Assembly: GCA_001823065.1 (NCBI GenBank)
Contig: MHTJ01000003.1
Coordinates: 106,869-170,868 of the forward strand
Source of the DNA: Candidatus Vogelbacteria bacterium RIFOXYD1_FULL_44_32
GTDB lineage: Bacteria > Patescibacteriota > Minisyncoccia > Phycocordibacterales > XYD1-FULL-46-19
DNA length: 64,000 nucleotides
Direction: 5' to 3'
Of the stretch, positions 2,078 through 42,998 are shown one piece after another. The position numbers were made by a program, and so were the translations under genes. Positions within the stretch are counted from its first letter, which is position 1. Each line of letters begins with the position of its first letter. The notes beneath the pieces are model-generated. The model saw nothing but the letters and a program-made list of their open reading frames with translations, ran no database searches and was not told where the DNA came from.

Positions 2078-2078
2078 A

Positions 2079-2273
2079 TCATCGTGTTTTGCTCAGCATG
2101 CTCTCAAGGAACTCGACCCGTTCCTTAAGCTCCGTGTTGGCGATATTCCGCGACAACGTCGAAGCAAGCTTGGCGATCATAGATGCCTGCTTGTGCGATA
2201 TCTCTCTGTTCACCACCTTGCGGAGGGTGTCCGAGAGAATGTTGTTTATTTCTTCTAGATTGATGGGTTCCAT
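2079..2273 (-). CDS. small hypothetical protein (64 aa)
   Basis: ORF packed tightly between the flanking minus-strand genes (1-bp gaps). Confidence 0.3.
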   Translation of the reverse strand: MEPINLEEINNILSDTLRKVVNREISHKQASMIAKLASTLSRNIANTELKERVEFLESMLSKTR

Positions 2274-2274
2274 A

Positions 2275-2649: not shown

Positions 2650-2653
2650 ATGC

Positions 2654-3403
2654 TTATATTTTCACCGCTGTTGTGCCAGTGAGTTTTTCAAGTCGCTTGA
2701 TTGAGATTTCCACATACGTCTCATCAAGTTCAATACCGATACACTTTCGACCCAAGTGTTCACAGGCGACAGCCGTCGAACCGCTTCCGAGGAAGGGATC
2801 ATACACAACGTCACCGACCTTCGTTGAGTTCGGAATAATCTTTCGCAGAAGACCGACTGGCTTCTGTGTCGGGTGCAATTTCGACTTCGTAGGACGCGGA
2901 TGGCAGATGACGTTCCGCGCCTTCGACCGTTCCATCTTGTGCTTGCCGAACCAGCCGTAGGCGATCAGCTCATAAAGCGAGAGATAATCCTTCCTACTCA
3001 TAACAGGCTGATTCTTGAACCATATGATCATTTGGCTGTAGTAGAAGCCTGCGGACTTCATGCCCGCGCGAAGACTCGGGAACATCGGGTCGGCATTGAA
3101 GATGTAGACCGCATTGTATTCGGCGAGATACGGAATGACCGCCCCGAGGTAGCCACGGGTGAAGTCCTCGTATTTCTCCTCGCTCTGGAGGTGGTCATTG
3201 GTGATTGCCTTATCTTCGTCTGCACTCAGTTTCAGGAAGCCTTTCTTGTTTTCGACATACGCAACTCCATAGGGCGGGTCAGTGACGACCGCGCGAATCT
3301 TGTGCTTGCCGATAACCTTCCCGACATACGCCCTGTCGAGCGAGTCGCCGCAGGCGATGATATGGTCGCCAACCTTAAAAATATCTCCTTTATTTACTTT
3401 CAT
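2654..3403 (-). CDS. DNA methyltransferase (N6-adenine/N4-cytosine, beta-class)
   Basis: DPPYG motif near the N-terminus and FLGSGST (FxGxG AdoMet motif) near the C-terminus, which is the beta-class order. The start is trimmed to the internal Met (MKVNKGD) at 3403 to avoid overlapping the upstream gene. Confidence 0.8.
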   Translation of the reverse strand: MKVNKGDIFKVGDHIIACGDSLDRAYVGKVIGKHKIRAVVTDPPYGVAYVENKKGFLKLSADEDKAITNDHLQSEEKYEDFTRGYLGAVIPYLAEYNAVYIFNADPMFPSLRAGMKSAGFYYSQMIIWFKNQPVMSRKDYLSLYELIAYGWFGKHKMERSKARNVICHPRPTKSKLHPTQKPVGLLRKIIPNSTKVGDVVYDPFLGSGSTAVACEHLGRKCIGIELDETYVEISIKRLEKLTGTTAVKI

Positions 3404-4685
3404 ATATTCTCTTCGCCTTAAGGTTGGTAAATTTCTCCCATCGGTCGATAACGATGGTCGCGAAGATGAGGTCCCTCTCGACACCTCGCCATGCACGATT
3501 AAGTTCCTCGCACGCAATCAGGTCGCTCCCGCTTCCTGCGAATCCACTGAACACAATGTGGAGAGGTGCACTGCATCTCTTGAACGGTTTCTCGTTTAAG
3601 GTCACAGGCTTTTGAGTGGGATGCTGGTATGACTGCGCGTTGTCCCTTTTCTCGATCCAAATATCTATCATGTCGAGTATCTCGTCATGCACTTGATTGC
3701 CGGTGGTCACCTCCTGATTAAGGATTTCGTTGATGTTGTTCATCCCCGTATTGAGGTACGGCTTTCCGATCGTTCCGTACACGCACGGCTCGTACACCTT
3801 GTTGAAGGCGATCTTGTGCGTGGGGTTCTGGTTGTTCTTAAGCCACAGACAGACACGCTTCGCGTTCACTTTGTGCTTTGCGTACAATGCCTGCACCATT
3901 CCGATGTATGAGGAATCACACCAGTAGAAGAGGTGAGCGTCTTTTTTAGCGGCACCTTTCGCCACCTCCATGCTCTTGTCCAAGAAGTCCATGTAGTCGC
4001 TGTCCTTCTTGGAGTCGTCCTTGCCAGAATATGAGCCTTGGTACTTTTCCTTGTTGCCAACACCTTTGGAATAGTCGAGTCCGATGTTGTATGGAGGGTC
4101 GCAGTACACGATGTCCGCAAGGTCGCCAGCCATGAGCTTCTGTACCAGCTCGGTATCGGTCGAGTCGCCAACAAGGAGACGGTGCTTACCGAGTTCCCAG
4201 ATCTCTCCCGACTTTACTTTCGGAGTGATTGTCTCCTTGAGTGCCTTCTCGACATTGAAGTCGTCATCAACTACATCGACATCATCGAATAGGCTCTGAA
4301 GTTCCTCGTCACCGAAGCCGACATCAAGAAGCACGCTCATATCGAACTCCTTGAGAAGCTCCTCGTTCCAAGAGCCGGTGTTCTTGTTGAGGCGAAGATT
4401 GAGTTCTCGCTCTTCTTCGAGTGAAAGCTCACGCGAAGGTACCATGCATTCGACATCCTCGATGCTTAAATCTGCGTATACCTTGATACGCTGTTCGCCG
4501 CCGATAATGATGTTGGCTCTGGAGCCAATGTTGAGGACAATAGGAACGACCGTCCCAAATTCCGTCACAGATTTCTCCAAGTCCCTGCGTTCGTTCTCGC
4601 TTAGCTTGCGCGGATTGTATCCGTTCTTGATCAAGTCGCCGAGCTTGCGAGTGGTGGGCGACCATGTGATCTTTTCTTTTGCCAT
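3390..4685 (-). CDS. ParB-like nuclease domain fused to a DNA methyltransferase (phage/plasmid-type)
   Basis: The N-terminus has ParB/Sulfiredoxin-like features. The central part has DPPYN and the C-terminal part has FSGFAGSGS (FxGxG). This architecture is typical of phage ParB-MTases. Confidence 0.8.
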   Translation of the reverse strand: MAKEKITWSPTTRKLGDLIKNGYNPRKLSENERRDLEKSVTEFGTVVPIVLNIGSRANIIIGGEQRIKVYADLSIEDVECMVPSRELSLEEERELNLRLNKNTGSWNEELLKEFDMSVLLDVGFGDEELQSLFDDVDVVDDDFNVEKALKETITPKVKSGEIWELGKHRLLVGDSTDTELVQKLMAGDLADIVYCDPPYNIGLDYSKGVGNKEKYQGSYSGKDDSKKDSDYMDFLDKSMEVAKGAAKKDAHLFYWCDSSYIGMVQALYAKHKVNAKRVCLWLKNNQNPTHKIAFNKVYEPCVYGTIGKPYLNTGMNNINEILNQEVTTGNQVHDEILDMIDIWIEKRDNAQSYQHPTQKPVTLNEKPFKRCSAPLHIVFSGFAGSGSDLIACEELNRAWRGVERDLIFATIVIDRWEKFTNLKAKRIYESK

Positions 4686-6889: not shown

Positions 6890-9800
6890 ATGAGCTCCGA
6901 AAAGGTGAAGGTTGATTCAAATGCCGATGAGCATGAGCCCACCAAAGAGGGTGAACTTTTTCTTGAGACTGAAAACCAAGACAGGGACAAAATTGTCTTC
7001 AATCAAAAAAAGGACAGAGAGCAAGAAGAGCAAGAGGAGCGCTTGCAATATTTGGCCGATCAAGCCGAAGAAGATTTTCATCAGCTAAAACTCCAAGATA
7101 TAAAAGACAAGCTGTTAAAAAAAGAAGAACCACTACCTGATATTGTAAAAGTCCCCAATCTACAGTCAGTAAGGCAAGAACAAAAAACGGCCAAGAAAAG
7201 TTTTCAACAAAAAATCAAGGACAAAATGGTTGATACTGTGCTTGGCAAAGACTATCGCAAAGAGTCAGCCTGGATTTATTATCTGGAAAAGAATATTCCG
7301 GTTAAAAAGTATATTAGGGAATCTATTGCTGTCAGCGACGGTGGCGCGGAGGCGGTTATTGCTAAACATCAGGCAGAGGAATACGAAGTCACCGATGATT
7401 ACGTTATCCATATGGGTGAGGAGCCGACCCGCGAGATTTCCTTTGCCAAAGAGATGCCATATGTTATGGCTAAACCACAAAATGAGTTTGACCGGGGCGA
7501 CCAAGATAAATTGAGATCGTACTTACATCTGCGCCACGATCCAGTAGAAGTGACCGAATTGTTGAAGCTAGCGGGGCGAGAGGTTTTTGCAAACAATTTT
7601 GTAGAACATAATTACTATTTTGGCAAAACAATGCGGGAACTTATTGATACCCCACATATTGTGGAGGTACTCCAATGGCTTATTCAGGTGGGGGTTACGT
7701 TTGACTATATTTATGACAGCTATTTAGAAAAACTTTGTTCTTCACCGTATGTAGAAAAGCTGACACCACAGCTCGCGTCAGCCGTCAGGGCTACCGTAGG
7801 TGGGGAGACCAAACATCTTATGTATATGCTCCCGGACTGTCTTGACCGGAACATTTTTGAGGGTGAACATGCGGGCGAGGATTTTCAAATTATCCGTAAA
7901 TTTGGGTTTGAACTTTTTGACAAGTTAGACGAAGTCGGTTTGTTGGGGGAAGCCAGAAAATTGGTGGGACAAGGGATATTTAAGATTGAGAAATTATTTG
8001 ATGAATTTAAGAGTAAAAATTTTTCTGGTAATAATGACTCACAAGCTCGACTGGAAACCTTTGCGAACATTATTAATTCATCTGCGCTACAGTCTCTGGA
8101 AAAAGATGAAGGTGCGATGGCTATAGCTAAAAAACTTCACCGCTTGGTAGGGATACAAATTGAACCAACGGATCCCGATTTGGAAAAACTAAAAATATTG
8201 GAGACAGACCCTACGGCCATGGCGGTGGCCGGTGTTTTAAATAGACTATCTGGGGCAGACCACTTTTTTGGTGATCTTGATGATTTTGTCAAAATTATGG
8301 GTGATAAAAGAGCGGTTGAGTCTTTGTGCGACGAAAAGGCTATTGATTTTGTAAGCAGGTTTATTAAGCAGTACCACTATCGCTTGGGACTGTCCGACTT
8401 TACCCCTCCTTATAGTATTTTCGATATTCCAAATCAGTTAGACCAAGAAAAATTACTGGCGGCCGACACAGTGGCTTTATATGAGAAACTTCATACTTTG
8501 GGCTACAACCTAAATTTGTGCAAGTTGGATGTTTTTATGGGTATGGTAGAAAACAAAGATCAGTGGCAAGAAATTCTGGCCGATGATATTTATACTGAGC
8601 TATTGCGCTCGATTCTAAAAAAATCCAGTCTTGAGGACATCAAGGACGTTCTTCTGATAGAGCAGGTGGAGGCCAAGCTCTTGAACCAATTATCTACCGC
8701 CTTTGATTATTCAATAAACGAAGATTATGCCAAGTCGGACCGCTCCTATGTGACCGCTCTTCTTTCTCACCCAGAACAGATAGAGGCTTTGTTTGAGCCA
8801 CAGCGAATCGCCCTGATCAAGCACTTAAACAGACGGACGAGGGGTTTTGGTTATTATGTGGGCGGTTTCCACTTGAGGGAGCTTAATAGCTATATGAAAA
8901 TTCCGCTTGAAACTTTACGGATTTTTGAGCTTTTCGATAAGACAGACGGAAATACGGTTGGTTCTAGTGAAATTGACCTAATAAAACAGCTAGTTGGTTA
9001 TAAAAACGAAGAAATATTAAAGGCGGTTTCAATATTGGAAAATTTATTACTAGTAGAAAAAAGTAACGGACCGTCATCTGGGTCAGAAAAATTTAAATTT
9101 CGACTTGAATCAGATAGTCTGCGAACCGTGCTTGAAGTATTGCAAAATGGTTTTACCGTTACTGATTTGCAAAAATTACAAGATTTCTGGCTCAAGAAAT
9201 ATGGCGACAGTTACGGGCGGCATTATACGCTGGAAGACAAGCAAGTAAAAGCCAGTAGGGATATTTTGCAATATTTACCACAATTGGTGGCCTTTGAAAA
9301 AGATGAAGCTAATCTGGAGGCTATTTATCAAGAAATTTCCGAGTATCTTGGCTCATTTCGAGGGGATCTTGACCTTTTTACGGTAGATAAGATAGTCAAA
9401 ATCCGTGACATCGGACTACTGGAGGTGTTTCGAAAAATAAAAGATGACCAACGGGTTGTTCAATTTGTTTACGCTAATGTAGATAAGTACTCAGAGATCC
9501 CCCCAGAAAAGATTGAAGACTATATTTCGGTTATCATCAAAATTAACCAGTCACCGTCTCAAGAAATTCAACGATTGAAAAATAGTTTGATGGGAGAAAT
9601 TATGGCGACCAGTGACCCAGTGGCGGCCTATGACAAAATTGAACAAGTTTTTGTCAAAAATAATCTTCCACTGGTCGGTAAGGTATATAAAATATTTGAG
9701 ATTATCCACCCGGCGGCGGTACTGGCTCAGCAAGTTAAAAAATGCCCCAGCCCAGAACTAAAAAAGAAGAGAGGCCGGGCGGTGCAGGCGACATTTCTTA

Positions 9801-11677
9801 GTGATTTACTGCAGGTCCATATTGACTCGGCCAATCGGTCTTTGCGAGACTATTTGGAAGTTTTAGCTTTAGGAGAAGATGTTTTAAACCAAGCCGAAGA
9901 CGAAGGGTTTGACTCACTCCAAACAGAAGATGAGCAATTACTGAAGGCCGTATTTGCCAAACTGCGAACCTTGTTTGAGGTTTCCCAGTTGGGTTCTTCG
10001 GCCGAGGTTGGTCCCCTTGCCGACCCAGATCTTCAAAATCAATATGAAAAGTTAAAGCAAAGTTTGAAAGTTGGACCAGGACAAAAGATTACCGACCGAA
10101 TCACCGATATGTTTTTGCGCCCGATTGGCGCCCGGACAATGGGCGAAGTTTTGGAGCGGATGAAGTCGGCTAAAGAGCTAGCCCACCAGCGCAATGTTGA
10201 AGCAGTCCAGCAAGCTGACCACGGTTATGTAGAAGTGGCACCGGGGGACCTCTTGAAAGGGGTAAGAGCCGAGTTTATTGAAGATATTTTACAAAATGGT
10301 TCGGTGGCCAAAGAATTTTTAGGGGGCAAAGCCGAATCTGACGCCACCCCTTTTGATACAGACGTAAGCCAAGTGTTGGTCGAAGATTTTACGGAGACGG
10401 ACAATGTGCGCACTAGATTTGCCGGAGCAATCGGAAAGTCTTTGGCCACTGGTTATGGCCCTCTTCTCTTCTTAGTCAAAAATCATGGGCAGTTTTCCGC
10501 TGGGCCTAACAAAAAAGCGCAGTACGAGCTTTTTGGGGCTGGGGGTGGCGATTTGGCCACTGCTCGTCATTGTGGAATTAGGACTGGTTTTGCCACTACC
10601 GAAGTCGATGCCATTATTGCCAATGATCTGGAGGGCAAAGTACCAGATAATTTGTATTTTGAAATCAGCCAAAATGGCTATTATATACCGGTGGCCGATC
10701 GGACAGGGAAAATTATTTTTACACCTGAAATGTATGACGAGAAAAGAAAAACCTTTGCTGGGTTAGATAGGTTTGACGGACCACCGCTTGCGGTAGCAGA
10801 GACAAAGCCAGAAGAGGCTCATTATAATGAGATCCAAAAAACTAAGAAAAAATCTTACGAATCTCAGACTTTATCACAAGAGGCGATGAGGGTGATAAGC
10901 GACTCGGTCCGCGAGACCTTAAGCGAGGCGGGAGTTAACCTGAAAAATCGCTTTGACACGGGAATTTTGGGTGCTCGTCTCGAAGACATTGGTTCAACTG
11001 GTCGTGGTACCAATCTTGATACCCATTTTGACTTTGATTTAATGCTTAGTCTCGACGCTAATGATTTTCCTAAGGCCGAAACGATTGCCCAGCAGCTGAT
11101 ATTAGCTTGTCGTTATGAAGGCAATGACTCCCATGTGGATCAAGGGGGTTACTATCAATTAAGACTAAAAGGGGTTAGGGAAATAGCCGGCCGAACTTTT
11201 GCTGAGCCAATTGATCTGGATATCGGTTTCAATCGCAGTGCCGATGTTAAGATTTTTGGTACCCATGAAGCTATTAAAGAAAGATTGGATTGGATCGAAG
11301 AGACCGTGGGTGCAGATACTAAAAATGAAGTGGTGGCTAATATTGTTTTAGCCAAGGAAGTTCTAAAAGCTGGTCATTGTTATAAAAAATTAGAAGATGG
11401 TGGTATGGGTGGTGCGGGTGTAGAGAATTGGATTTTAAAGCATGAAGGAAATTTGATTAAAGCTTTTGAAGCGTTCCTGACCGCGGCCACCGATGACAAA
11501 GGGCAGGTGGTTTCCCTGGAAAAATTTAGAAAGAATTATGACATTACTGATCCGGGAATAAATACTAAATATCTAAAGCATGATAATTTTATCTTAAATC
11601 TAAAGCCAGAGGGCTATCAAAAAATGGTGACAACCATAACTGATTATTTATATATTGGCGGGTTTTACACTGCCTAA
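6890..11677 (+). CDS. giant 1595-aa protein with a C-terminal Pol-beta-superfamily (CD-NTase/OAS/MNT-like) nucleotidyltransferase domain
   Basis: Uninterrupted 4.8 kb ORF. Near residue 1367 it has IGSTGRGTNLDTHFDFDLML (GS-x-RGT...D-h-D) and, about 60 aa later, IDLDIGF as a third acidic strand. The N-terminal 1300 aa have no motif I recognise. Confidence 0.7.
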   Translation: MSSEKVKVDSNADEHEPTKEGELFLETENQDRDKIVFNQKKDREQEEQEERLQYLADQAEEDFHQLKLQDIKDKLLKKEEPLPDIVKVPNLQSVRQEQKTAKKSFQQKIKDKMVDTVLGKDYRKESAWIYYLEKNIPVKKYIRESIAVSDGGAEAVIAKHQAEEYEVTDDYVIHMGEEPTREISFAKEMPYVMAKPQNEFDRGDQDKLRSYLHLRHDPVEVTELLKLAGREVFANNFVEHNYYFGKTMRELIDTPHIVEVLQWLIQVGVTFDYIYDSYLEKLCSSPYVEKLTPQLASAVRATVGGETKHLMYMLPDCLDRNIFEGEHAGEDFQIIRKFGFELFDKLDEVGLLGEARKLVGQGIFKIEKLFDEFKSKNFSGNNDSQARLETFANIINSSALQSLEKDEGAMAIAKKLHRLVGIQIEPTDPDLEKLKILETDPTAMAVAGVLNRLSGADHFFGDLDDFVKIMGDKRAVESLCDEKAIDFVSRFIKQYHYRLGLSDFTPPYSIFDIPNQLDQEKLLAADTVALYEKLHTLGYNLNLCKLDVFMGMVENKDQWQEILADDIYTELLRSILKKSSLEDIKDVLLIEQVEAKLLNQLSTAFDYSINEDYAKSDRSYVTALLSHPEQIEALFEPQRIALIKHLNRRTRGFGYYVGGFHLRELNSYMKIPLETLRIFELFDKTDGNTVGSSEIDLIKQLVGYKNEEILKAVSILENLLLVEKSNGPSSGSEKFKFRLESDSLRTVLEVLQNGFTVTDLQKLQDFWLKKYGDSYGRHYTLEDKQVKASRDILQYLPQLVAFEKDEANLEAIYQEISEYLGSFRGDLDLFTVDKIVKIRDIGLLEVFRKIKDDQRVVQFVYANVDKYSEIPPEKIEDYISVIIKINQSPSQEIQRLKNSLMGEIMATSDPVAAYDKIEQVFVKNNLPLVGKVYKIFEIIHPAAVLAQQVKKCPSPELKKKRGRAVQATFLSDLLQVHIDSANRSLRDYLEVLALGEDVLNQAEDEGFDSLQTEDEQLLKAVFAKLRTLFEVSQLGSSAEVGPLADPDLQNQYEKLKQSLKVGPGQKITDRITDMFLRPIGARTMGEVLERMKSAKELAHQRNVEAVQQADHGYVEVAPGDLLKGVRAEFIEDILQNGSVAKEFLGGKAESDATPFDTDVSQVLVEDFTETDNVRTRFAGAIGKSLATGYGPLLFLVKNHGQFSAGPNKKAQYELFGAGGGDLATARHCGIRTGFATTEVDAIIANDLEGKVPDNLYFEISQNGYYIPVADRTGKIIFTPEMYDEKRKTFAGLDRFDGPPLAVAETKPEEAHYNEIQKTKKKSYESQTLSQEAMRVISDSVRETLSEAGVNLKNRFDTGILGARLEDIGSTGRGTNLDTHFDFDLMLSLDANDFPKAETIAQQLILACRYEGNDSHVDQGGYYQLRLKGVREIAGRTFAEPIDLDIGFNRSADVKIFGTHEAIKERLDWIEETVGADTKNEVVANIVLAKEVLKAGHCYKKLEDGGMGGAGVENWILKHEGNLIKAFEAFLTAATDDKGQVVSLEKFRKNYDITDPGINTKYLKHDNFILNLKPEGYQKMVTTITDYLYIGGFYTA

Positions 11678-32415: not shown

Positions 32416-33588
32416 TTAGAGCTTGAGGTTGCCTTGGGCACGGATACTATCTGGCCCAGACGATTCTCCTTGGTGGAAAAAGGCAGCCAGTGCGATCATG
32501 GTGGCGTTGTCGGTGGAGGTTTCTAGAGTTGGTAGCAGTAGGGCGAGGCCTTTGTCGGCACAAACTTTGGCTAGTTGGGTGCGCAGGTATTGGTTGGCAA
32601 TCACGCCACCACCCACAATCAGGGTGGGGGCATTGTATTCTTCACAAGCCGACATTGCTTTGGCGATCAAGACTTCCACGACAGCATCTTCAAATTCGCG
32701 GGCCAAAGTGAGTTTGTCGGTTTCGTTTAGCTCGCCCCTTTTTTCTATCGCATAGCGGACGGCGGTTTTAATACCCGAAAAAGAAAAGTCGTAGTCGCCT
32801 GAGTTTTTCATGGGGCGGGGGAGCTGCCAGTCGCCGGTTAGGTTTTGGGCGCGGGCCTCGGCCGCAAGGCGCGAAATTTGGGGACCACCGGGGTAGGGTA
32901 GGCCGAGGAGGCGAGCGACTTTGTCAAAGGCCTCACCCACCGCATCGTCGCGGGTCTCGCCTAGGCGCTCGTACTCGCCCCAGTTTTTCACCAAGACAAG
33001 CTCGGTGTGGCCACCAGACACGAGTAGGGCCACGGCTGGAAATTGTACCTGTTTCGGATTTCGTGCTTCGTATTTTGTGCTTTCTCCGTCTGCAAGCACG
33101 GAGACAATATGCCCCTCCATATGGTTTACCGGCACCAAGGGTTTCATCCAAGCGGTGGCTAGAGCGCGGGCAAAGTTAATACCCGCCCACAGCGCTGGCT
33201 CAAGGCCGGGGCCGGCGGTGACAGCGATAGTGTCTATCTCGGGTATTTGAATAGATGACAAAAAAGATATTAAATTTTCCGCCAGCCCTTCTTCGCGGTC
33301 TAAAATTTCGCGGATAAGGATAGCTTCCGAGCTAGACATATCGGGGTGCTCCCATTCGCGTAAAAGATCGGCTTTAACTAGAGCTTCTTCTAAAACCGGG
33401 ATAAGATTGGCGATGTGTTCCCGCCGAGCGAGGTTAGGTACGACGCCACCCCAAACCGCGTGCAGTTCAACTTGCGACGAAACAATATGTGACAGCACCT
33501 TAAACGAGGGCGACTGTTGGTCACCCTCGGCTTCCACAATACTAATCGCGGTTTCATCACAACTGGTTTCAATCGCGAGGATTTTCAT
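32416..33588 (-). CDS. tsaD: tRNA N6-adenosine threonylcarbamoyltransferase TsaD (Kae1/Gcp)
   Basis: MKILAIETSCDETAISI N-terminus, GPGLEPALWAGINFARALA and VNHMEGHI motifs. Confidence 0.9.
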   Translation of the reverse strand: MKILAIETSCDETAISIVEAEGDQQSPSFKVLSHIVSSQVELHAVWGGVVPNLARREHIANLIPVLEEALVKADLLREWEHPDMSSSEAILIREILDREEGLAENLISFLSSIQIPEIDTIAVTAGPGLEPALWAGINFARALATAWMKPLVPVNHMEGHIVSVLADGESTKYEARNPKQVQFPAVALLVSGGHTELVLVKNWGEYERLGETRDDAVGEAFDKVARLLGLPYPGGPQISRLAAEARAQNLTGDWQLPRPMKNSGDYDFSFSGIKTAVRYAIEKRGELNETDKLTLAREFEDAVVEVLIAKAMSACEEYNAPTLIVGGGVIANQYLRTQLAKVCADKGLALLLPTLETSTDNATMIALAAFFHQGESSGPDSIRAQGNLKL

Positions 33589-34124
33589 TTTTGTTTATAG
33601 AAACTATGGTCAGGCGCGATAATTTGAATTAAGGTGTTGCGAAGGGCTTCCTCTAAACTCACCTCGCGGGCGATCATTCCTCCTGAATATGTTCCCCATG
33701 TATCGTTGGGGAGGTTGCCGTATTTTTCTTCTAATATAGCCATAACATCGCAGTGTTCCTTATTTAGTTTTTTCATCTCACCAAGAATAAAATCGGGAAC
33801 CTTTAAGCCACTAGAATAACCGTAAAATGTCTCATCTTTTGTAAAAATCGTGCACCAAGCTTCTTCGTAAATATGTCCATATCTTTCGACTAGACCACTT
33901 TCTAAACCAACCCACATATCGGCTGACGGGATATTATTTTTGGCGTCTTCGGCGCGATTTTTTGAGCCATCAAAAGTTTGTTTGTCGTAGGGCGTATCTG
34001 GTACGCCAGAATTGCTTTTGTACCCTTCAATATGTAAATCGGTAGACAGAGATAGCTGTTCGGTCAAAATTTTTCGCGCAATATCTATTTTACGCTCACT
34101 AGTGGAGCCAATAATTATTTTCAT
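33585..34124 (-). CDS. non-canonical purine NTP phosphatase (YjjX/DUF84 family)
   Basis: SGVPDTPY...SKNRAEDA and ADMWVGLESGL match the YjjX pattern. The start is reset to MKIIIGSTS at 34124 because the longer ORF would overlap tRNA-Ser. Confidence 0.7.
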   Translation of the reverse strand: MKIIIGSTSERKIDIARKILTEQLSLSTDLHIEGYKSNSGVPDTPYDKQTFDGSKNRAEDAKNNIPSADMWVGLESGLVERYGHIYEEAWCTIFTKDETFYGYSSGLKVPDFILGEMKKLNKEHCDVMAILEEKYGNLPNDTWGTYSGGMIAREVSLEEALRNTLIQIIAPDHSFYKQK

Positions 34125-34214
34125 GGCGGAGAGAGGGAGATTCGAACTCCCGATACAGTTGCCCGTATGCCGGTTTTCGAAACCGGTGCCTTCAACCACT
34201 CAGCCATCTCTCCA
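34125..34214 (-). tRNA. tRNA-Ser (anticodon CGA), type II with a long variable arm and CCA encoded
   Basis: Reverse complement GGAGAGATGGCTGAGTGGTTGAAGGCACCGGTTTCGAAAACCGG...GGGAGTTCGAATCTCCCTCTCTCCGCCA. Confidence 0.85.
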
Positions 34215-35571: not shown

Positions 35572-35649
35572 GGTCGGCTTTATTCTTTCGACCCCGTCCG
35601 TACCGGTGGTGAAAAAGTGGTGGGTTAAAATATACTATAAAATTGAAAC
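35572..35649 (+). pseudogene. duplicated 3'-end fragment of the 34672..34947 gene (no start codon) whose stop overlaps the start of the next gene
   Basis: About 63 bp at roughly 85% identity to 34866..34927. It translates to ...VGFILSTPSVPVVKKWWVKIYYKIET* versus the parental LGFILSTLSVPVVKRWWVKYIPNSRE. Confidence 0.55.
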
Positions 35650-38600
35650 ATGAACTCTGACTTAACTTTTATAACAAATGAGGGGGGAAACAATCTAAAG
35701 GATAGATTTAGTAAGTTAATTAAAGATACTAGATTTTTTGATGTTTTAGTTGGTTATTTTTATACAAGTGGTTTTTACGCTATTTATCCTCAACTCGAAA
35801 AGACTGAAAAAATTAGAATCTTGATTGGTATCAGTACAAACAAGCAAACCTATAATCTTTTACAACAAGTTCAATCTCATAAAGTAGTTAGTGATACTGT
35901 CGGCGACAGTGTTAAAGCAGAAATGGAAGAGAGTGATAACAGTTATGAAGTTGAAAGTGGCGTGTACAAATTCCTAGAATGGATCAAAAGCGATAAGCTC
36001 GAGATTCGAGCTTATCCAGAGGAAAAAATACACTCAAAAATTTACATAATGACTTTCGAAGAAGATGATCGAGATATTGGGCGAGTTATTACTGGCTCGA
36101 GTAACTTTACTCAAAGTGGTCTTGTAGACAACCTCGAGTTTAACGTCGAGTTAAAGAATCCGTCTGATTATGACTACGCAAAGAATAAATTTGAAGAATT
36201 ATGGAATAAAGGTGTAGATGTAAGTGAAAGATACACAGAAACAATTGAAAAAGATACTTGGTTGCGTGAGGACATCACACCTTATGAGTTGTATTTAAAA
36301 TTCTTATACGAATATTTCAAAGAAGAAATTAATGAGGACAATGAAATTGAACATAGATACAGACCAGAAAATTTCAAAGAACTAAAGTATCAAGATCATG
36401 CTGTAATTAATGCCAAAAAAATTGTTGAGGAACACGGAGGAGTATTTTTGTCAGATGTGGTTGGTCTCGGAAAAACATACATGGGAACCATGTTGTGCCA
36501 GGAGCTCGGAGGGAGGACTTTGGTTTTGGCTCCTCCTCATCTTATTGATGAAAACAACGAAGGTAGTTGGGAAAATGCCTTTAAAAATTTTGGGTTTCGA
36601 TCCCGAGACTATAAGTGTATGTCTATTGGTGCACTGGATAAAATTATTGAAAAAGGGCTTCACTCTGAATTCGATACAGTGCTAATAGACGAGGCGCACA
36701 GGTTTCGGACTGAAGAAACTGAGACGTATGCTAAACTTGCTCAAATATGTCGAGGACGGAAAGTTATACTTGTAACCGCCACTCCATATAACAATTCACC
36801 TAGTGACTTACTCTCACAAATTAAACTGTTTCAGCGTGTAAAGAAAAGTACTATCCCAAATCTTGTTGATATAGAGAGTTTATTCAAAGTATTAGAAAAG
36901 AATCTTAAAGGTTTAGATCGTAAAAAAGACAAAGAACAGTATTTAGCTGTTACTCAATCAAATTCAAAAATAATTAGAGAAAGATTGTTGAAGTATCTGA
37001 TGGTCCGACGAACTAGAACAGAAATTGTCAAATATTACGGTGAGGATTTGAAAGAACAGAAGATGAAATTTCCTGAGGTTGCGGATCCAGCACCTGTTTT
37101 TTATGAGTTCAATGAAAAGGAAAATGAAATTTTCTTTCAGACAATAAAAATAGTTACAACTGAATTTAAGTATTCTCGATATACTCCGTTGCTTTACCAT
37201 AAGGGTTTGTCTAGTGTGGAGGAGCAACAACAGACAAACATGATGAAGTTTATGAAGATGCTGCTTGTGAAGAGACTAGAAAGCAGTTTTTATGCGTTTA
37301 ACATGTCAATTCACCGCTTTATCAGGTCATATGAAAAGTTTATCTCCGAATTTGAGTCTGGTAGTGTGTATATAAGTAAGAAACATACACAAAAAATATT
37401 TGACCATCTTGAAGCTGGTAATATCATGGCTGTCGATGAATTGGTCGAATCCGGGAAAGCAGAAAAGTTTTCAAAAGAAGAATTCAACGAAAGGTTTATC
37501 ATTGATTTGAAAAAAGATTTAGAAATACTTAAAAATATAAAACAACTATGGAGCGAGATTGATAGGGACCCGAAGATTTTGGCATTTAAGGAAAAGCTTG
37601 TATTAGAGAAGCCTGTAGTGGAAGGAAAATCAATTATTTTCACAGAGTCTAAAGAAACTGCGCAGTATTTATTAGAGAATCTGCAAGATGTCTTTCCAAA
37701 TAAAATTTTGTATTTTTCTGGCGCAAGTTCACGGGCTGAGCGTGAGATTGTGATGCAAAACTTTGATGCAAACACAAAGAATAAAAAGGATAACTACTCT
37801 ATTCTTATTACAACAGATGTGTTGTCTGAAGGTGCCAACTTACATCAAGCAAATGTTGTTATCAACTATGACATACCATGGAACCCGACCCGTATTATGC
37901 AAAGAGTCGGGCGTATTAATCGCGTTGACGCTAAGCACGAAAAAATATTTACCTATACTTTCTTTCCGACCGATCAATCTAATGAGCAAATTAAACTAAG
38001 AGAATTGGCGGAAGCAAAAATACAAGCATTTATAACTCTACTTGGTGCAGATGCAAAACTTCTTACAGAAAATGAAGTTCCAGAAGGACATAGCCTCTTT
38101 AGTCGCATCCTCTCAAAAGAATTAATCTCGGGCGAAGACGACGAAGTCGAGAGTGAACTTGGATATCTACAGGAAATTAGAAAAGTAAGAGATGAAGACC
38201 CAAGTTTATTTGAAAAAGTAAAAAGGCTACCTAAAAAAGCAAGAACCGCAAGGATAAATGTGGACAAAAACCCACGGCTCCTAACTTACTTTAGAAAAGG
38301 CAAGTTGCAGAAGTTCTTTATAGTCGAATCCGGCCAAGCTGCAGTTTCTACAGAATTAGATTTTACTGATGCTGCTAAAATGCTCTCTGCTAAACCAATT
38401 GAACGACGTGCATCTCTAAATGAAATATACTTCACCCTTCTTAAGTTAAATCTTGAAATGCTGAAGTCTGTGAATGAACTAGAGGAGGATGAATTTTCTG
38501 CAAGACGAGGGAGTAGAGATAACTCCGCTCGTCTATCCAAAATCCTTAAGGCAAAAGAAATAAAAAATTACAAAGGGTTTACAGAGGATGATGAGTTGTA

Positions 38601-38835
38601 TATCGGTCGAGTAATTGAAGAATTGGATTTTGGAGGTGTGCCCAAGAAAATTGCACAGAAAATTTATAAAAAAGTCGAAGACACACCAGAAATTATTGCA
38701 AACCCAATAAAGCTACTTGGGGTATTAAAAACTTTGCTTCCCAATGATTTCTTAAATCCAACCCTGCAAGAACAAGAATCAGGTACACTGATTAGAAGTG
38801 AAATAATTCTCTCAGAGTATTTTACTGGTAAATAA
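35650..38835 (+). CDS. PLD-family (HKD) nuclease domain fused to an SNF2/SWI2-family helicase (DrmC+DrmD-like)
   Basis: The N-terminus has IHSKIYIM...GSSNFT (HxK...GSxN). The central part has VVGLGKTY (Walker A), LIDEAHRFR (DEAH) and TATPYNNSPSDL. The C-terminal helicase lobe has QRVGRINR. Confidence 0.85.
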   Translation: MNSDLTFITNEGGNNLKDRFSKLIKDTRFFDVLVGYFYTSGFYAIYPQLEKTEKIRILIGISTNKQTYNLLQQVQSHKVVSDTVGDSVKAEMEESDNSYEVESGVYKFLEWIKSDKLEIRAYPEEKIHSKIYIMTFEEDDRDIGRVITGSSNFTQSGLVDNLEFNVELKNPSDYDYAKNKFEELWNKGVDVSERYTETIEKDTWLREDITPYELYLKFLYEYFKEEINEDNEIEHRYRPENFKELKYQDHAVINAKKIVEEHGGVFLSDVVGLGKTYMGTMLCQELGGRTLVLAPPHLIDENNEGSWENAFKNFGFRSRDYKCMSIGALDKIIEKGLHSEFDTVLIDEAHRFRTEETETYAKLAQICRGRKVILVTATPYNNSPSDLLSQIKLFQRVKKSTIPNLVDIESLFKVLEKNLKGLDRKKDKEQYLAVTQSNSKIIRERLLKYLMVRRTRTEIVKYYGEDLKEQKMKFPEVADPAPVFYEFNEKENEIFFQTIKIVTTEFKYSRYTPLLYHKGLSSVEEQQQTNMMKFMKMLLVKRLESSFYAFNMSIHRFIRSYEKFISEFESGSVYISKKHTQKIFDHLEAGNIMAVDELVESGKAEKFSKEEFNERFIIDLKKDLEILKNIKQLWSEIDRDPKILAFKEKLVLEKPVVEGKSIIFTESKETAQYLLENLQDVFPNKILYFSGASSRAEREIVMQNFDANTKNKKDNYSILITTDVLSEGANLHQANVVINYDIPWNPTRIMQRVGRINRVDAKHEKIFTYTFFPTDQSNEQIKLRELAEAKIQAFITLLGADAKLLTENEVPEGHSLFSRILSKELISGEDDEVESELGYLQEIRKVRDEDPSLFEKVKRLPKKARTARINVDKNPRLLTYFRKGKLQKFFIVESGQAAVSTELDFTDAAKMLSAKPIERRASLNEIYFTLLKLNLEMLKSVNELEEDEFSARRGSRDNSARLSKILKAKEIKNYKGFTEDDELYIGRVIEELDFGGVPKKIAQKIYKKVEDTPEIIANPIKLLGVLKTLLPNDFLNPTLQEQESGTLIRSEIILSEYFTGK

Positions 38836-38837
38836 TC

Positions 38838-41800
38838 ATGAATAAGACAGAAGCAACAACAATAATCAATAAAACATTTAGCTCAAGTTTTGATGAGGAT
38901 AGTTTTAATCTTTTTGTATCAAATCTTTTTAAGGAATATGAGCCAGTAGAAAAAAGACCTTTTATTAAAAATGCCTTCACTGCATATGTTTCTGAGTATA
39001 AGATAATTGGACACTATAAAGATAGTGAAGAAAAAGAAATCGATATATTAAAAGTTCATCTTAATCATGTTCTATCAATTGAACGAGCCAGAACTGCTCA
39101 GAGAAACTTTGTAGCGGACTATTTAAAAACGAATGGTAAAAACGCAGCTCTAGTAGCTTTTGTATCACCAAAATACGATGACTGGAGACTTTCGCTTGTG
39201 AGGCTAGAACATTCCCTGGAAGTCGTAGATGAGAAACTAAAAACTAAAGAAGAAATAACACCTGCTAAAAGATGGTCATTCTTGGTTGGAAAAAACGAAG
39301 GAAGCCATACTGCTCAAAGTAGATTTACAGATCTTTTGGTTCACAATGAAAGGCCCACATTGACTGAACTAGAGTTAGCTTTTGACATAGAGAAAGTCAC
39401 TAAAGAATTTTTTGATAAGTATACTGAGTTGTACTTTAAATTGAAGGAACATCTAGATGAAATATTGAAAAAGGATGAGAAGATAAAAAGTGATTTTGAA
39501 TCAAAGGAAATTTCAACGGTAGACTTTGCTAAAAAAACATTAGGTCAAATTGTTTTTCTTTATTTTCTTCAAAAAAAAGGGTGGTTTGGGGTAGCGGCAG
39601 ATAAAGAATGGGGGGAAGGACCTAAAAAGTTTATTAGATTATTGTTTGGCCGACGAGGCCTATATGGTAAAAACTTTTTTAATGATGTTCTTGAGCCCTT
39701 ATTTTATGAAGCTTTGGCTCAAGACAGAGGCAAGGAATCAATTTATCCACGACTGAATAATTGTCGGATGCCATTCCTCAACGGTGGATTATTTGAGCCT
39801 ATGAATGGTTATCAGTGGGAGACAACGGATGTTATTATTCCTGATGAGTTATTTTCAAATACACACAAAACAAAAGAGGGAGATATCGGAGACGGTATCT
39901 TAGATGTTTTTGATAGATACAATTTTACAGTAAACGAAAACGAACCATTAGAAAAAGAAGTGGCAGTTGATCCGGAAATGCTAGGAAAAGTTTTTGAAAA
40001 TCTTCTTGATATTAAAGATAGGAAAAGCAAAGGGGCTTTCTACACACCTCGAGAGATTGTACATTATATGTGTCAACAAAGCCTAATCAACTATCTTGAA
40101 ACAGAAACTAATGGAGAAGTTTTAAAAGAAGATATTGAAACTTTTATCAACAAAGGAGATTTTATTATTGAGAATGATAAAATTGCCCTAGAAAGAGAAA
40201 AAAACAGAAAAGCAAAGGGTGCAAAGTATGAAGATAAGACATATGCGTTACTCCTTCCTGAGTCAATAAGAGCGCAAGCAGATACGTTCGACAAATTGCT
40301 TAAAGAGGTAAAGGTAGCTGATCCCGCAGTTGGGTCTGGGGCTTTTCCACTGGGAATGATCAATGAGATTGTACGTGCAAGAAAAGTTTTAAATATCTAC
40401 AATTCATCTGAGATTTCTGATTATGATCTAAAACTACATACAATTTCAAATTCAATACATGGAGTTGATATTGATCCTGGAGCTGTTGAGATAGCTAAAC
40501 TTCGGCTGTGGCTTGCATTGGTTGTGGAAGAAAAAGAACCCCATCCACTCCCTAACCTTGAACATAAGATTATGCAGGGAAATAGTCTTATTTCTGAGTA
40601 CGAAGGAATTAAACTGTTTGATGAAAATATTATTGAAAAAAGAGATTCAGATGAGGTTATGCAAAACACTCTTGGCTTAGGAAAATCTGGTTCTGAGTTA
40701 AAAATGGAAGACCTGCAAAATAAAATAGAGCTGTATGTAAACGAGTCTCAGAGAAGTAAAAAACAAAAGCTAAAACAAGATATAGATAACCTGAAATGGG
40801 AGCTCATTGAAGTTACTCTTGAAGAACAAAAAAAAGTAGATAAGCTGGTTGAGATTAAAAAGTTCCGACGTAAAAACATTCGCCCATTTTTTATTTGGAG
40901 ATTAGAGTTTAGTGATGTCTTCAAAAAGAAGGGTGGTTTTGATGTGGTAATCGGTAATCCTCCTTATGGATTCAGAGATGTACTCACAAAAAAAGAGAAA
41001 GAGTATTTTAGAAAAGTTGAGAAAATTGAATTTCAAAGCGGAGACTCTGCAGAATTGTTTTGTAAAAAATCATTTGATACGCTGCTTAAGGATAATGGTA
41101 TTCTGTCCTTTATAATCCCTAAAAAATGTACCTATGGTGACTCTTGGGGTGGATGGAGAACCAATTACTTCAAAAAGTATGATCTACATTTTGTATTGGA
41201 TTCAGGGAAAGCGTTTGACAGAGTTCTGCTTGAGCAAACTGCATTTGGTTTGGCTAAAAAAATACAAAACGCGGAAGTCCAATTGTCTTTTTTAGATAGT
41301 AAAAAAGATAAGATTCATCATTTTTCCAAATCAACCAAAGACAGTATTTTCAAAGAAAATAATACTCTTCAGATATACTTGGAATATTTCCCGAGAAGTA
41401 TTTTTGAGAAAATACAGAGAAAATCAGAACCGAACCTTTTTGTTAGTGGTGATTTAGGACTTGGAATTGGTATTGATTTTTTTTCTGACGAAGAAACTCC
41501 TAATAAATTACTAAAAGGAATTGATATTGACCGTTGGAATATTAGAGGACATAGGTATCTAAAAAATAGAGAAAAATTGAATTGGAAAAAAGCTCAGGGG
41601 TTTTTGAGACCAAAAGTAATATGTCAGAGACTTGTTGCACACATTGAAAATCCTTCCCCGCATATAAGAATTAATGCATGTTTTGACTCCGAAGGAATTA
41701 TTATTACCAATACAATAACCGCATTTAAGTTAAATGAAATGATAGAGGAAAAATTTTGGTTAGCGTATTTAAATTCTTCCTTAGTTAATTGGTATACGTA

Positions 41801-42065
41801 TAACTTTATTTATGGGCGCGCTATTAGAGGTATGGATTTTTATAGTTTCTATATTGAGCAAATACCAATTCCCAATATTTCTCATGATCACCAAAGTAGG
41901 TTTGTAGAATTAGTGAATCAAATATTAGATATTACTAAAGATAATAATTATGATTCTAAAAATGTAACAGCGCAACAGAAATTTCTAGAAAAACAGATTG
42001 ACGAGATGGTTATGGATCTATATGAGTTAACTCAAGAAGAGAAAGAGATTGTCCATAAAACTTAA
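38838..42065 (+). CDS. large N6-adenine DNA methyltransferase, Eco57I/PglX/DrmMI-like (gamma-class)
   Basis: DPAVGSGAFPLG (motif I) and VVIGNPPYG (motif IV, NPPY). 1075 aa with a long N-terminal region and a C-terminal target-recognition region. It starts 3 bp after the helicase stop. Confidence 0.85.
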   Translation: MNKTEATTIINKTFSSSFDEDSFNLFVSNLFKEYEPVEKRPFIKNAFTAYVSEYKIIGHYKDSEEKEIDILKVHLNHVLSIERARTAQRNFVADYLKTNGKNAALVAFVSPKYDDWRLSLVRLEHSLEVVDEKLKTKEEITPAKRWSFLVGKNEGSHTAQSRFTDLLVHNERPTLTELELAFDIEKVTKEFFDKYTELYFKLKEHLDEILKKDEKIKSDFESKEISTVDFAKKTLGQIVFLYFLQKKGWFGVAADKEWGEGPKKFIRLLFGRRGLYGKNFFNDVLEPLFYEALAQDRGKESIYPRLNNCRMPFLNGGLFEPMNGYQWETTDVIIPDELFSNTHKTKEGDIGDGILDVFDRYNFTVNENEPLEKEVAVDPEMLGKVFENLLDIKDRKSKGAFYTPREIVHYMCQQSLINYLETETNGEVLKEDIETFINKGDFIIENDKIALEREKNRKAKGAKYEDKTYALLLPESIRAQADTFDKLLKEVKVADPAVGSGAFPLGMINEIVRARKVLNIYNSSEISDYDLKLHTISNSIHGVDIDPGAVEIAKLRLWLALVVEEKEPHPLPNLEHKIMQGNSLISEYEGIKLFDENIIEKRDSDEVMQNTLGLGKSGSELKMEDLQNKIELYVNESQRSKKQKLKQDIDNLKWELIEVTLEEQKKVDKLVEIKKFRRKNIRPFFIWRLEFSDVFKKKGGFDVVIGNPPYGFRDVLTKKEKEYFRKVEKIEFQSGDSAELFCKKSFDTLLKDNGILSFIIPKKCTYGDSWGGWRTNYFKKYDLHFVLDSGKAFDRVLLEQTAFGLAKKIQNAEVQLSFLDSKKDKIHHFSKSTKDSIFKENNTLQIYLEYFPRSIFEKIQRKSEPNLFVSGDLGLGIGIDFFSDEETPNKLLKGIDIDRWNIRGHRYLKNREKLNWKKAQGFLRPKVICQRLVAHIENPSPHIRINACFDSEGIIITNTITAFKLNEMIEEKFWLAYLNSSLVNWYTYNFIYGRAIRGMDFYSFYIEQIPIPNISHDHQSRFVELVNQILDITKDNNYDSKNVTAQQKFLEKQIDEMVMDLYELTQEEKEIVHKT

Positions 42066-42089
42066 TCCTGTTGATTGGTTATAATTCTC

Positions 42090-42998
42090 CTAGGCTTCTG
42101 AAAGTGGCAACTGGTAGTTTTGAAGTGCACTATGATGATCCAGAACTTTTTTGATGTAAAATTCGGTTTTTAGGCCCTCGAGGGTTTCAAATTGTTTTCG
42201 TATAATTTTTACGCGCAAAATGTCGTCTTTTGCAAAAGCCTCATTATTTGACTGTACCCGTCGTAAGAAATCACCATCTTGTACTTCAGCCCAAAAATTC
42301 GTATTTCCGTCAGAAAAGCGCCATTTATTGTTTTCTTGAAACACAGCACTAATGATTTGCAGACTGATTTCGTACTCTTGCTCGTCGATCAACTTTTCTT
42401 GCAGTTCTGGAGATATAAAATATCTAGATTCGTCTTTTGAAATAGTCTCAATCATTTCAGAATCAGAATTAAAACTAATTTCTTCGATCCCATCTCTTGC
42501 GAGTGGCTTATAAATAACAGCTTCAAGTGATCTGCGAATTTTTACGACAGGCAGTAATTTTGCGGTTTTATTATCTATCTCAAGGGTGTCATCGTCTTCA
42601 AGTTCGATTCGAATATTACCAGATGTGAGTTTTATAACATTGGTAATTTTCCTGTTTTTTAACCATTTAATCAACTTTACCAGTCCTGTGATGCCAGTGC
42701 CACCATAAACTAATACTTCTAATAAGTTTAATGCGCCGGCAACATCCTTGTTATTAAAAAGATCAAGAGCTTGTGTTGCAAAATCTTGAACCAGATTGAG
42801 GTCAACACCTAATGATCCGTCTTTAAATGCTCGTACGTTCAAGACAACCTTGGTCCGGCTTCCATTAAGGACGCGGTTTGCTTCTTCTACTGCTTCGCCA
42901 AGGGCGAACAGTGCAGGAGATAACTCTTTTACATCCATCTCGTGGTTTTGCAGTGCGAAGCCATCATATTTAAGTGTGAAGAATGTGCTTTTTTCCAT
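42090..42998 (-). CDS. hypothetical protein (302 aa), convergent with the MTase in the same AT-rich island
   Basis: ORF only. Low GC like the helicase and MTase. Confidence 0.5.
   Translation of the reverse strand: MEKSTFFTLKYDGFALQNHEMDVKELSPALFALGEAVEEANRVLNGSRTKVVLNVRAFKDGSLGVDLNLVQDFATQALDLFNNKDVAGALNLLEVLVYGGTGITGLVKLIKWLKNRKITNVIKLTSGNIRIELEDDDTLEIDNKTAKLLPVVKIRRSLEAVIYKPLARDGIEEISFNSDSEMIETISKDESRYFISPELQEKLIDEQEYEISLQIISAVFQENNKWRFSDGNTNFWAEVQDGDFLRRVQSNNEAFAKDDILRVKIIRKQFETLEGLKTEFYIKKVLDHHSALQNYQLPLSEA

Follow-up and report, generated by a model that had tools for sequence, protein, structure and literature searches.

A two-gene locus of Candidatus Vogelbacteria that pairs an HKD nuclease-SNF2 fusion with a gamma-class methyltransferase, as a probable two-subunit ATP-dependent restriction-modification system

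ATP-dependent restriction-modification (R-M) in which a methyltransferase (MTase) directs a motor nuclease is a known kind of system. In Type ISP enzymes the nuclease, the motor, the gamma-class MTase and the target-recognition domain (TRD) are fused in one chain (PMC3874165), and for both Type ISP and Type III enzymes cutting requires that inverted sites first communicate in an ATP-dependent way (PMC3874165; 10.64898/2026.09.23.753747). In MANTIS (also Gao_RL or BR type-2, 'BREX-related type-2'; MtsABCD), a dimeric effector joining a phospholipase D (PLD) nuclease to a superfamily 2 (SF2) motor makes up a single PLD site, and the TRD of the MTase directs it; cryo-electron microscopy of this effector, MtsD, showed a dimer with one PLD active site above two SF2 motors, resembling SauUSI (10.64898/2026.09.23.753747). 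Fusions of an HKD phosphoesterase to a SWI2/SNF2 ATPase were assigned to bacterial R-M systems by the Aravind group (PMC3417536; see also PMC2292703). Here we describe two adjacent genes, P1 and P2, that encode such a fusion and a gamma-class N6-adenine MTase. They lie in a 64,000-nucleotide stretch of Candidatus Vogelbacteria bacterium RIFOXYD1_FULL_44_32 (contig MHTJ01000003.1, positions 106,869 to 170,868), hereafter the window. The closest experimentally studied system is MANTIS (Shaw et al. 2026, 10.64898/2026.09.23.753747; Rakesh & Krishnan 2026, PMC12839542), and by logic the locus appears nearest to Type ISP, Type III and MANTIS/Gao_RL. The searchable literature contained no name for the P1-P2 pair and no experimental work on it, only passing mentions by bioinformaticians, and nowhere in it was the 'type IIG' member recognised as an obligate partner of an HKD-SNF2 protein. 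The two-gene family has been noticed before in passing, and the locus is one more member.

We consider it probable that the locus is a self-contained, two-subunit, ATP-dependent R-M system that was acquired horizontally, with P2 as a Mod-like and P1 as a Res-like subunit that work together as set out below. The P1 open reading frame (ORF) occupies 35650..38835 (+) and encodes 1061 aa; P2 occupies 38838..42065 (+) and encodes 1075 aa; a third ORF, P3, lies at 42090..42998 (-) with 302 aa. Coordinates, strands and lengths of all three agree with those given in an initial annotation made from the letters alone. P1 and P2 are separated by 2 nt, the TAA of P1 ending at 38835 and being followed by TC and the P2 ATG at 38838. 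They are not chance ORFs, because each exceeds 1000 codons in DNA of 35% GC. An AT-rich island had also been described, and the GC fraction is indeed 0.31-0.376 over 36-43 kb, compared with roughly 0.42-0.53 (about 0.45) in the flanks.

P1 begins with a single-HKD PLD-type nuclease domain (residues 52-185; 35803..36204, +), in which H128-S-K130...G149-S-S-N152 is the sole HxK with a following GSxN. The SWI2/SNF2 ATPase motor follows (residues 243-793; 36376..38028, +), with Walker A GLGKT at 272, DEAH at 347, TATP at 376, motif VI QRVGRINR at 751 and a helical insertion between its lobes. Pfam matched PLDc_2, RE_NgoFVII, ResIII/SNF2-rel_dom and Helicase_C, all above curated cut-offs, and the HKD and SF2/SNF2 motif residues are invariant in 38 P1 homologs at 60-87% identity. 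The family holds more than 7900 proteins at E<=1e-10, with length fixed at ~1061 aa. The best PADLOC model was PDLC01075 / C3a139 'HKD+Snf2' (8.9e-55, residues 18-793); C3a139 is a cluster of proteins adjoining type III CRISPR loci (PMC6546367), and the match marks a defence-island neighbour, not a defined system. An AlphaFold model of P1 (72.6 for pLDDT, the predicted local distance difference test) found its best Foldseek matches among the SWI2/SNF2 ATPases Chd1, RapA, SMARCAD1, ISW1 and ZorD. The C-terminal region (residues 794-1061; 38029..38832, +) is family-specific and had no Pfam match even at E<=10. It was modelled at pLDDT ~75-85 after a disordered linker (776-833), as a beta-sheet (~864-903) followed by a helical bundle, and is a candidate P2-docking or RapA-like C-terminal module. 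Pfam scans of P1 revealed no DUF3427 or SRA-like reader domain and no recognisable DNA-reading domain.

P2 joins a gamma-class N6-adenine MTase to a C-terminal TRD and a long N-terminal extension. Residues 1-175 (38838..39362, +) form an alpha/beta domain, and residues 176-375 (39363..39962, +) a helical domain that precedes the MTase core as in the N-domains of MmeI, PglX and HsdM. The MTase core (residues 376-790; 39963..41207, +) was assigned from Pfam and motifs, whose order is that of the gamma class (motif X region FYTP at 401, motif I DPAVGSG at 495, motif IV NPPY at 707); it contains a variable insertion at ~591-680 that was alignable in only 35 of 88 loci. The TaqI_C-type TRD occupies residues 791-1075 (41208..42062, +). 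Pfam matches above curated cut-offs were Eco57I (7.6e-30), N6_Mtase, MmeI_Mtase and TaqI_C (4.2e-7, residues 890-1011). All motifs that the initial annotation had quoted for the two proteins were present, and Pfam confirmed its single HKD, SNF2 and gamma-class MTase assignments. When the P2 family profile was compared with the PDB, it matched CamA (4e-44), BseCI, PglX, BrxX, BpuSI, TaqI and DrdV, solely through the MTase/TRD half.

The two genes occur together. Comparisons were made on the 160 best-scoring related loci, which share at least ~45% identity. A P1 relative is encoded at at least 550 loci in a one-genome-per-species collection, and the best 80 genome loci span more than 15 phyla (Patescibacteria, Bdellovibrionota, Omnitrophota, Nitrospirota, Chloroflexota, Planctomycetota (anammox), Bacteroidota, Desulfobacterota, Latescibacterota, Zixibacteria, Proteobacteria and others). 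Downstream of P1 and on its strand, 74 of these 80 carry a P2 homolog; four of the remaining six end at or within ~400 nt of a contig edge, a fifth (L026) carries an inserted gene that is followed by the end of the contig, and one (L063) went unexamined. Where the P2 ORF is complete, the gap between the genes is at most 46 nt in 47/58 loci. The converse also holds: when metagenome loci were anchored on the P2 N-domain, 66 of the 69 with at least 600 nt of upstream sequence had P1 there, on the same strand, and all 11 IMG/VR contigs carrying P1 also carry P2, ~10 nt downstream. Divergence of P1 and of P2 segments is correlated (Spearman 0.47-0.69) as strongly as that among P1's own domains (0.56-0.58). 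When flanking ORFs of the related loci were clustered, no third recurrent gene emerged: P1 was present in 78 loci, P2 in 62 and the next cluster in 11. P1 and P2 are an obligate two-gene unit, and the earlier proposal of a defence-type helicase-nuclease and methylase module is supported. The same pair, an SNF2-related protein followed by an N-6 DNA methylase, accompanies a distant P1 relative on a Parabacteroides distasonis plasmid, and cultured phage records contained only distant P1 relatives (26-28% identity). In its occurrence the locus is ordinary, being a single instance of a probable R-M module of two genes that is very common and moves horizontally.

This near-absolute synteny, together with the 2-20 nt spacing and the co-divergence, argues for one machine, and so bears on whether P1 might instead be an independent, SauUSI-like type IV nuclease, modification-dependent and ATP-dependent, with P2 a separate methylase merely travelling along. 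Unlike P1, SauUSI has no MTase partner and reads modified cytosines through its own DUF3427; P1 has neither that domain nor an SRA-like reader. A nuclease of that type coupled to a writer of N6-methyladenine (m6A) in one operon would also risk self-attack, and we regard this explanation as very unlikely. NgoAVII and CglI, which combine a PLD R-protein with a helicase H/N-protein, differ in that a B3-like domain on the nuclease subunit reads DNA and the MTase is a separate C5 enzyme.

The specificity domain varies far more than the rest of the machinery. Across 88 complete pairs compared with the window proteins, median identity was 63.5% for the PLD domain, 57% for the motor and 42% for the C-terminus of P1, and 48% for the N-domain, 64% for the helical domain and 52% and 38% for the MTase of P2. 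The P2 TRD (791-1075) was alignable in only 25 of the 88 pairs, with median identity 28%. Conserved machinery with a hypervariable TRD is a signature of specificity switching, and swapping a TRD on conserved machinery is the pattern of type I, IIG, ISP and BREX systems. In MANTIS, a TRD swap in the MTase re-targets methylation and restriction alike (10.64898/2026.09.23.753747), and a 2023 survey of programmed inversions counted Cj0031-like type II R-M genes that have a PLD+SNF gene immediately upstream among the loci whose specificity segments can invert (PMC9881135).

Another explanation is a role outside defence, in which a phase-variable methylase acts as an epigenetic regulator beside a RapA-like or repair-type SNF2 remodeller. 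Structural comparison places RapA among the best matches of P1, with alignments spanning ~1050 columns, and according to work cited in PMC9881135 Cj0031-like MTases are known as phase-variable regulators. Against such a role, the nuclease site is invariant and the TRD hypervariable, and the pair sits within a low-GC island and is scattered over more than 15 phyla, on viral contigs and beside integrases or recombinases, with defence-island neighbours; we find this explanation scarcely credible. At the gene level the locus has what a working definition of R-M names: an MTase genetically coupled to a nuclease, diversifying specificity, and mobility, seen here in the low-GC island, the many phyla and the viral contigs.

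How a two-subunit R-M system of this kind might work can be proposed from its parts. The TaqI_C-type TRD of P2 would read a short, probably asymmetric DNA sequence, and the gamma-class NPPY MTase would place m6A on host sites, probably on one strand only: because a single TRD is combined with a monomeric gamma-class MTase, hemimethylation of an asymmetric site is expected, and with it some dependence on site orientation. On unmethylated foreign DNA, site-bound P2 would contact P1 and recruit or license it. The SNF2 motor would then translocate double-stranded DNA with ATP, bringing together two complexes or two P1 protomers. As P1 carries one HKD half-site, two protomers would be needed to form one PLD active site. 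DNA would be cut away from the P2 site, as by Type ISP, Type III, SauUSI and the MANTIS effector MtsD. The pseudo-nuclease and helical domains at the P2 N-terminus most likely couple P2 to P1 without cutting DNA. Six or seven related loci have an intact P1 beside a P2 homolog that is split, frameshifted or interrupted, and such split or insertion sequence (IS)-interrupted genes are weakly consistent with a nuclease that is inert or harmless without its specificity subunit.

Several points weigh against the proposal. One PADLOC model, derived from REBASE, assigns the P2 family to type IIG with 670 bits. The P2 N-domain retains the conserved residues D62 and D69 and, at low Z, a restriction-endonuclease-like fold, and its invariant Arg/Glu/His constellation could be a non-canonical active site. 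The PLD-helicase effector and MTase of MANTIS require two further proteins, and cleavage was not reconstituted in vitro (10.64898/2026.09.23.753747); by analogy, a two-gene system may depend on host factors. Distant relatives differ in gene order, for example on Thermus pTHEOS02, where the order is MTase, hypothetical protein, helicase. The split P2 genes, finally, may be assembly errors in metagenome-assembled genomes, and phase variation or decay could be other sources of them. The split genes were seen in loci L016, L019, L047, L071, L072 and L080, the interruption in L047 being ~1.4 kb long with ORFs on the opposite strand.

The type IIG label suggests an explanation of its own, in which P2 is an autonomous type IIG enzyme whose N-domain cuts at a fixed distance through a non-canonical active site, and P1 is an accessory second-stage effector that processively degrades or clears cut DNA, or a backup nuclease. 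The model in question, PDLC03596 REase_MTase_IIG, is the best PADLOC match of P2 (1.8e-201) and aligns over its full length including the N-terminus, and the order of N-domain, helical domain, gamma-class MTase and TRD is that of MmeI and Eco57I (PMC3874165). Other type IIG PADLOC models, in contrast, start aligning only at P2 residue 229, and the N-terminus had no match at E<=10 in Pfam, which includes the MmeI N-terminal family and nuclease families, nor any match among PDB sequences.

The initial annotation had suggested checking the MTase N-terminus for a hidden PD-ExK nuclease. A structure model of P2 residues 1-385, built on a 35-sequence alignment (pLDDT 76.8, predicted template modelling score 0.71), yielded a restriction-endonuclease-like fold at low Z for the N-domain, so that the domain is weakly endonuclease-like and plausibly a relic of the PD-(D/E)xK fold. 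Among 170 homologs, D62 (95%) and D69 (89%) are conserved with MmeI-like spacing, whereas the position of the catalytic Lys of (D/E)xK is occupied by Leu (Leu71) in 96% and position 72 is variable. Taken with the lack of any nuclease-family match, this makes canonical nuclease activity unlikely as judged from the sequence. R85, Q88, R89, N90, W116, R117, S119, R145, S147, E154, H157 and T158 are invariant. This set is more conserved than a mere docking surface would require, and could be a ligand- or DNA-end-binding site or an unrecognised catalytic site.

The N-domain was found 716 times among 1.84 billion cluster representatives, always as residues 1 to ~180 of proteins of ~1000-1330 aa, shorter matches being fragment-like, and it is confined to this architecture. 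It never occurs without P1, whereas characterised type IIG enzymes act alone. Type IIG/IIL enzymes (MmeI, Eco57I, BpuSI, Cj0031) are autonomous and ATP-independent and have an active PD-ExK N-domain; P2 shares with them an MTase and TRD in one polypeptide, but at the level of motifs it lacks the catalytic Lys of an active nuclease, and at the genomic level it does not appear autonomous. We judge the autonomous-enzyme explanation unlikely, if deserving of some weight. More probably, the N-domain is an interaction or DNA-handling module tied to P1.

The initial annotation had regarded the locus as a compact DISARM-like module. Class 1 DISARM likewise has an SNF2 helicase followed by a gamma-class N6-adenine MTase, in the same order, together with a PLD domain, and P1 and P2 show distant similarity to DrmD and DrmMI models; the domain content thus corresponds to a DrmC~DrmD fusion with a DrmMI-like MTase. 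Membership is another matter. The DrmA-DrmB core (YprA helicase plus DUF1998) is absent and the PLD domain is fused to the helicase. Neither DrmA, DrmB/DUF1998, DUF499 nor DUF3780 was present in the window or in the ~160 related loci, in accordance with the earlier statement that DrmA/DrmB-like genes are missing. For DrmA, a YprA-family helicase, Pfam gave no candidate among the window ORFs, and no helicase besides P1 recurs in the 80 genome loci; for DrmB (DUF1998), there was no Pfam match in the window and no recurrent third family in related loci. P1 scored 131.2 bits against NCBIfam DrmD NF038317 (cut-off 610) and 92.4 against NF038318 (cut-off 950), PADLOC DrmD models aligned only to P1 residues ~444-830, and the score against NCBIfam DrmC (NF038319) was 16.4 bits versus a cut-off of 133, the PLD domain not being a separate protein. 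PADLOC DrmMI matched P2 at 1.7e-23 over residues 639-768 only, versus 1.8e-201 for the type IIG model, and PADLOC PglX at 2e-15 over part of the MTase core only, the NCBIfam PglX cut-off being missed widely. A cut-down DISARM is ruled out by the lack of DrmA and DrmB, the missed NCBIfam cut-offs and the better 'HKD+Snf2' and type IIG models. Its likeness to class 1 DISARM is confined to the domain content of the DrmD-DrmMI(-DrmC) part, and a two-subunit ATP-dependent R-M system is the better frame.

Sharing parts with DISARM could still mean sharing a mode of action, in which methylation marks self and P1 blocks phage replication or injected DNA without site-directed cleavage, for instance by sensing DNA ends or through remodelling of the DNA-protein complexes of the phage. 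Among PADLOC families DrmD ranks second for P1 (4.2e-33), DrmMI and PglX are the best non-R-M matches of P2, and the combination of an SNF2 helicase with a PglX-like MTase recurs in DISARM class 1, BREX type 3, ARMADA and BR systems (PMC12839542; PMC12458937). The DISARM core and the BREX core (BrxC, PglZ, BrxA/B) are, however, absent here and in related loci, and the NCBIfam cut-offs for DrmD, DrmC and PglX were all missed widely. P1 also keeps an invariant HKD nuclease site, and the hypervariable TRD fits site-specific targeting; we consider a DISARM- or BREX-like action decidedly unlikely.

Returning to the two-subunit R-M reading, the systems nearest in logic can be compared part by part. 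MANTIS resembles the locus in having an effector whose single-HKD PLD nuclease is N-terminal and joined to an SF2 motor, an N6-adenine MTase with a swappable TRD, an R-M-like ATP-dependent logic, and wide and mobile distribution. The NCBIfam model 'phospholipD_antiphage' (NF042964) and the PADLOC model 'PLD_Helicase', which we take to represent MtsD, matched P1 in the helicase half only, the former with 141.8 bits against a cut-off of 1100. Unlike the pair described here, MANTIS needs a DUF499 AAA+ ATPase (MtsA) and a DUF3780 protein (MtsB), both absent here and in the ~160 related loci. DUF3780 is present in 98% of BR type-2 loci (PMC12839542), whereas no such ORF adjoins the pair and no small gene recurs in related loci. 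MtsC, moreover, belongs to the alpha group of MTases and has DPPY and a centrally placed TRD, while P2 is a gamma-group enzyme that has NPPY, carries its TRD at the C-terminus and is extended by 375 aa at the N-terminus.

Type ISP enzymes (LlaGI, LlaBIII) have the same functional parts list in the same order, but all on one polypeptide, whose nuclease is an Mrr-type PD-(D/E)xK enzyme and whose motor is Type I-like; here there are two genes, an HKD/PLD nuclease, a SWI2/SNF2 motor and an extra pseudo-nuclease N-domain on P2. Type III systems (EcoP15I Mod + Res) also consist of two genes, are ATP-dependent and use an MTase that gives specificity and loads a helicase-nuclease, with one-strand methylation expected. 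They differ in having a beta-class Mod with a central TRD and a Res that combines a Rad25-like SF2 motor with a C-terminal PD-ExK nuclease, whereas in our locus the Res-like gene comes first, the MTase is gamma-class, the PLD nuclease is N-terminal and the motor is SNF2. No MTase_III model was among the 25 best PADLOC matches of P2.

Taken together, these comparisons allow the tentative suggestion, which we rate slightly below an even chance, that the P1-P2 family is an ATP-dependent R-M class of its own, so far unnamed, which could be called a 'split Type ISP with PLD chemistry'. In it, a type IIG-descended methylase would have lost its nuclease activity and would use the dead nuclease domain as a clutch for an SNF2-PLD motor nuclease, with no AAA+ loader, unlike MANTIS. 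If this is true, hundreds to thousands of 'type IIG R-M' genes are mis-assigned, and the pair is a minimal natural example of MTase-directed targeting of an SNF2 translocase. It is the smallest known arrangement that couples a gamma-MTase-TRD module to a PLD-SNF2 motor nuclease, and could offer a simpler model of the hand-off of an unmodified site from methylase to translocating effector than MANTIS, DISARM or BREX do. In evolutionary terms it suggests how type IIG, Type ISP and the SNF2 plus PglX-like modules of DISARM class 1, BREX type 3 and BR systems could plausibly be connected. For annotation, PADLOC-type models file P2 as a single-protein type IIG enzyme and P1 as a CRISPR-neighbour 'HKD+Snf2', while the evidence points to one obligate two-subunit system. 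Defence inventories and REBASE-style predictions should therefore count the pair differently, in at least 550 species-representative genomes including CPR (candidate phyla radiation), Omnitrophota, anammox and Chloroflexota bacteria. The finding also adds a concrete defence system to a Patescibacteria genome of very limited coding capacity.

Some related loci carry additional genes around the pair. An SLFN_AlbA_2+HATPase_c_4 gene (~440-540 aa) occurs in 11 of the 80 genome loci, always precisely between the P1 and P2 homologs (L020, L024, L026, L033, L037, L040, L042, L067, L072, L074 and L082), and on a Parabacteroides plasmid (L182) the pair is preceded by a similar gene, annotated 'RNA-binding domain-containing protein'. 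The gene may regulate the system or be an accessory that is optional. Rarer flanking clusters were large serine recombinases (7 loci), YhcG/DUF1016 (6), tyrosine integrases (4) and UvrD-like helicases (3). Other genes inserted between P1 and P2 encode KilA-N, Fic, Bro-N, RhuM, an IS transposase or HicB; inserts of these types are familiar passengers of type I R-M operons.

P3, the convergent 302-aa ORF, had been described as lacking any recognisable domain and as a possible third gene of the module. The first description was overturned by full-length matches to PADLOC PDC-S42 (1.9e-96), NCBIfam LAPAL_fam (260.4 bits, cut-off 60) and phrog_3243 (3.5e-70). As a third component P3 is rejected, being absent from all 160 related loci and having homologs that are opposite-strand prophage morons. 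Those homologs are few (34) and lie on the strand opposite to their neighbours. Their settings (L177-L180) are a Mu-like prophage, with the homolog placed between Bro-N and Mor/GemA, the early region of a lambdoid prophage, close to CII, RusA and SocA, and the vicinity of a large serine recombinase. These prophage early or accessory regions do not support the NCBIfam label 'putative phage structural protein', and an accessory or defence gene carried by prophages is the better fit. A close-relative scan of IMG/VR for P3 returned nothing. P3 behaves as an independent moron-type accessory gene that happens to share the island, and may itself be a single-gene defence candidate.

Housekeeping genes flank the island: a class I tRNA synthetase, TsaD/Kae1, an NTPase, a histidine phosphatase, dihydroorotate dehydrogenase, ribonucleotide reductase, MurJ, LepA, GyrA, histidyl-tRNA synthetase and five tRNAs. 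The host sequence is a CPR/Patescibacteria chromosome (Candidatus Vogelbacteria) with a foreign AT-rich insert; a protein with 100% identity to P2 is on record for RIFOXYD1_FULL_44_32, and the identical locus is present in three public assemblies. No integrase lies within the island or at its edges, no near-identical DNA was found on plasmids, and no convincing att-like direct repeats mark the island borders, the only flank-spanning 16-mer having one copy inside the P1 coding sequence. A tRNA-Ser and a tRNA-Glu lie ~1.2-1.5 kb upstream of the island, where an att-like repeat was likewise not found. In its longest ORF call (33585-34199, -; GTG start at 34199), the DUF84 NTPase gene runs at its 5' end into the tRNA-Ser(CGA) gene (34124-34213, -), and the true start of the NTPase gene is probably further downstream than this GTG. 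A promoter-like site, GTGAAA-16 nt-TATACT (35609..35636, +), ends 14 nt 5' of the P1 start codon. With 9/12 consensus matches, and with such sites in the region not above shuffled expectation, this weak consensus match is only suggestive of a candidate P1 promoter.

Two further regions of the window are of note. Tandem type II DNA methyltransferases at 3390-4685 and 2654-3517 (-) matched PADLOC MTase_II (6.7e-54 and 3.8e-51) and Pfam N6_N4_Mtase, and are followed on the same strand by two ORFs without a family match, 2275-2649 (124 aa) and 590-2077 (495 aa); 590-4685 (-) is possibly a second, separate type II R-M locus with an unrecognised nuclease. A 1595-aa ORF at 6890-11677 (+) had no Pfam match at 1e-4, in a region where the GC fraction is ~0.39-0.42 over most of 6-12 kb; it may encode a large CPR surface or adhesion protein or be another acquired gene.

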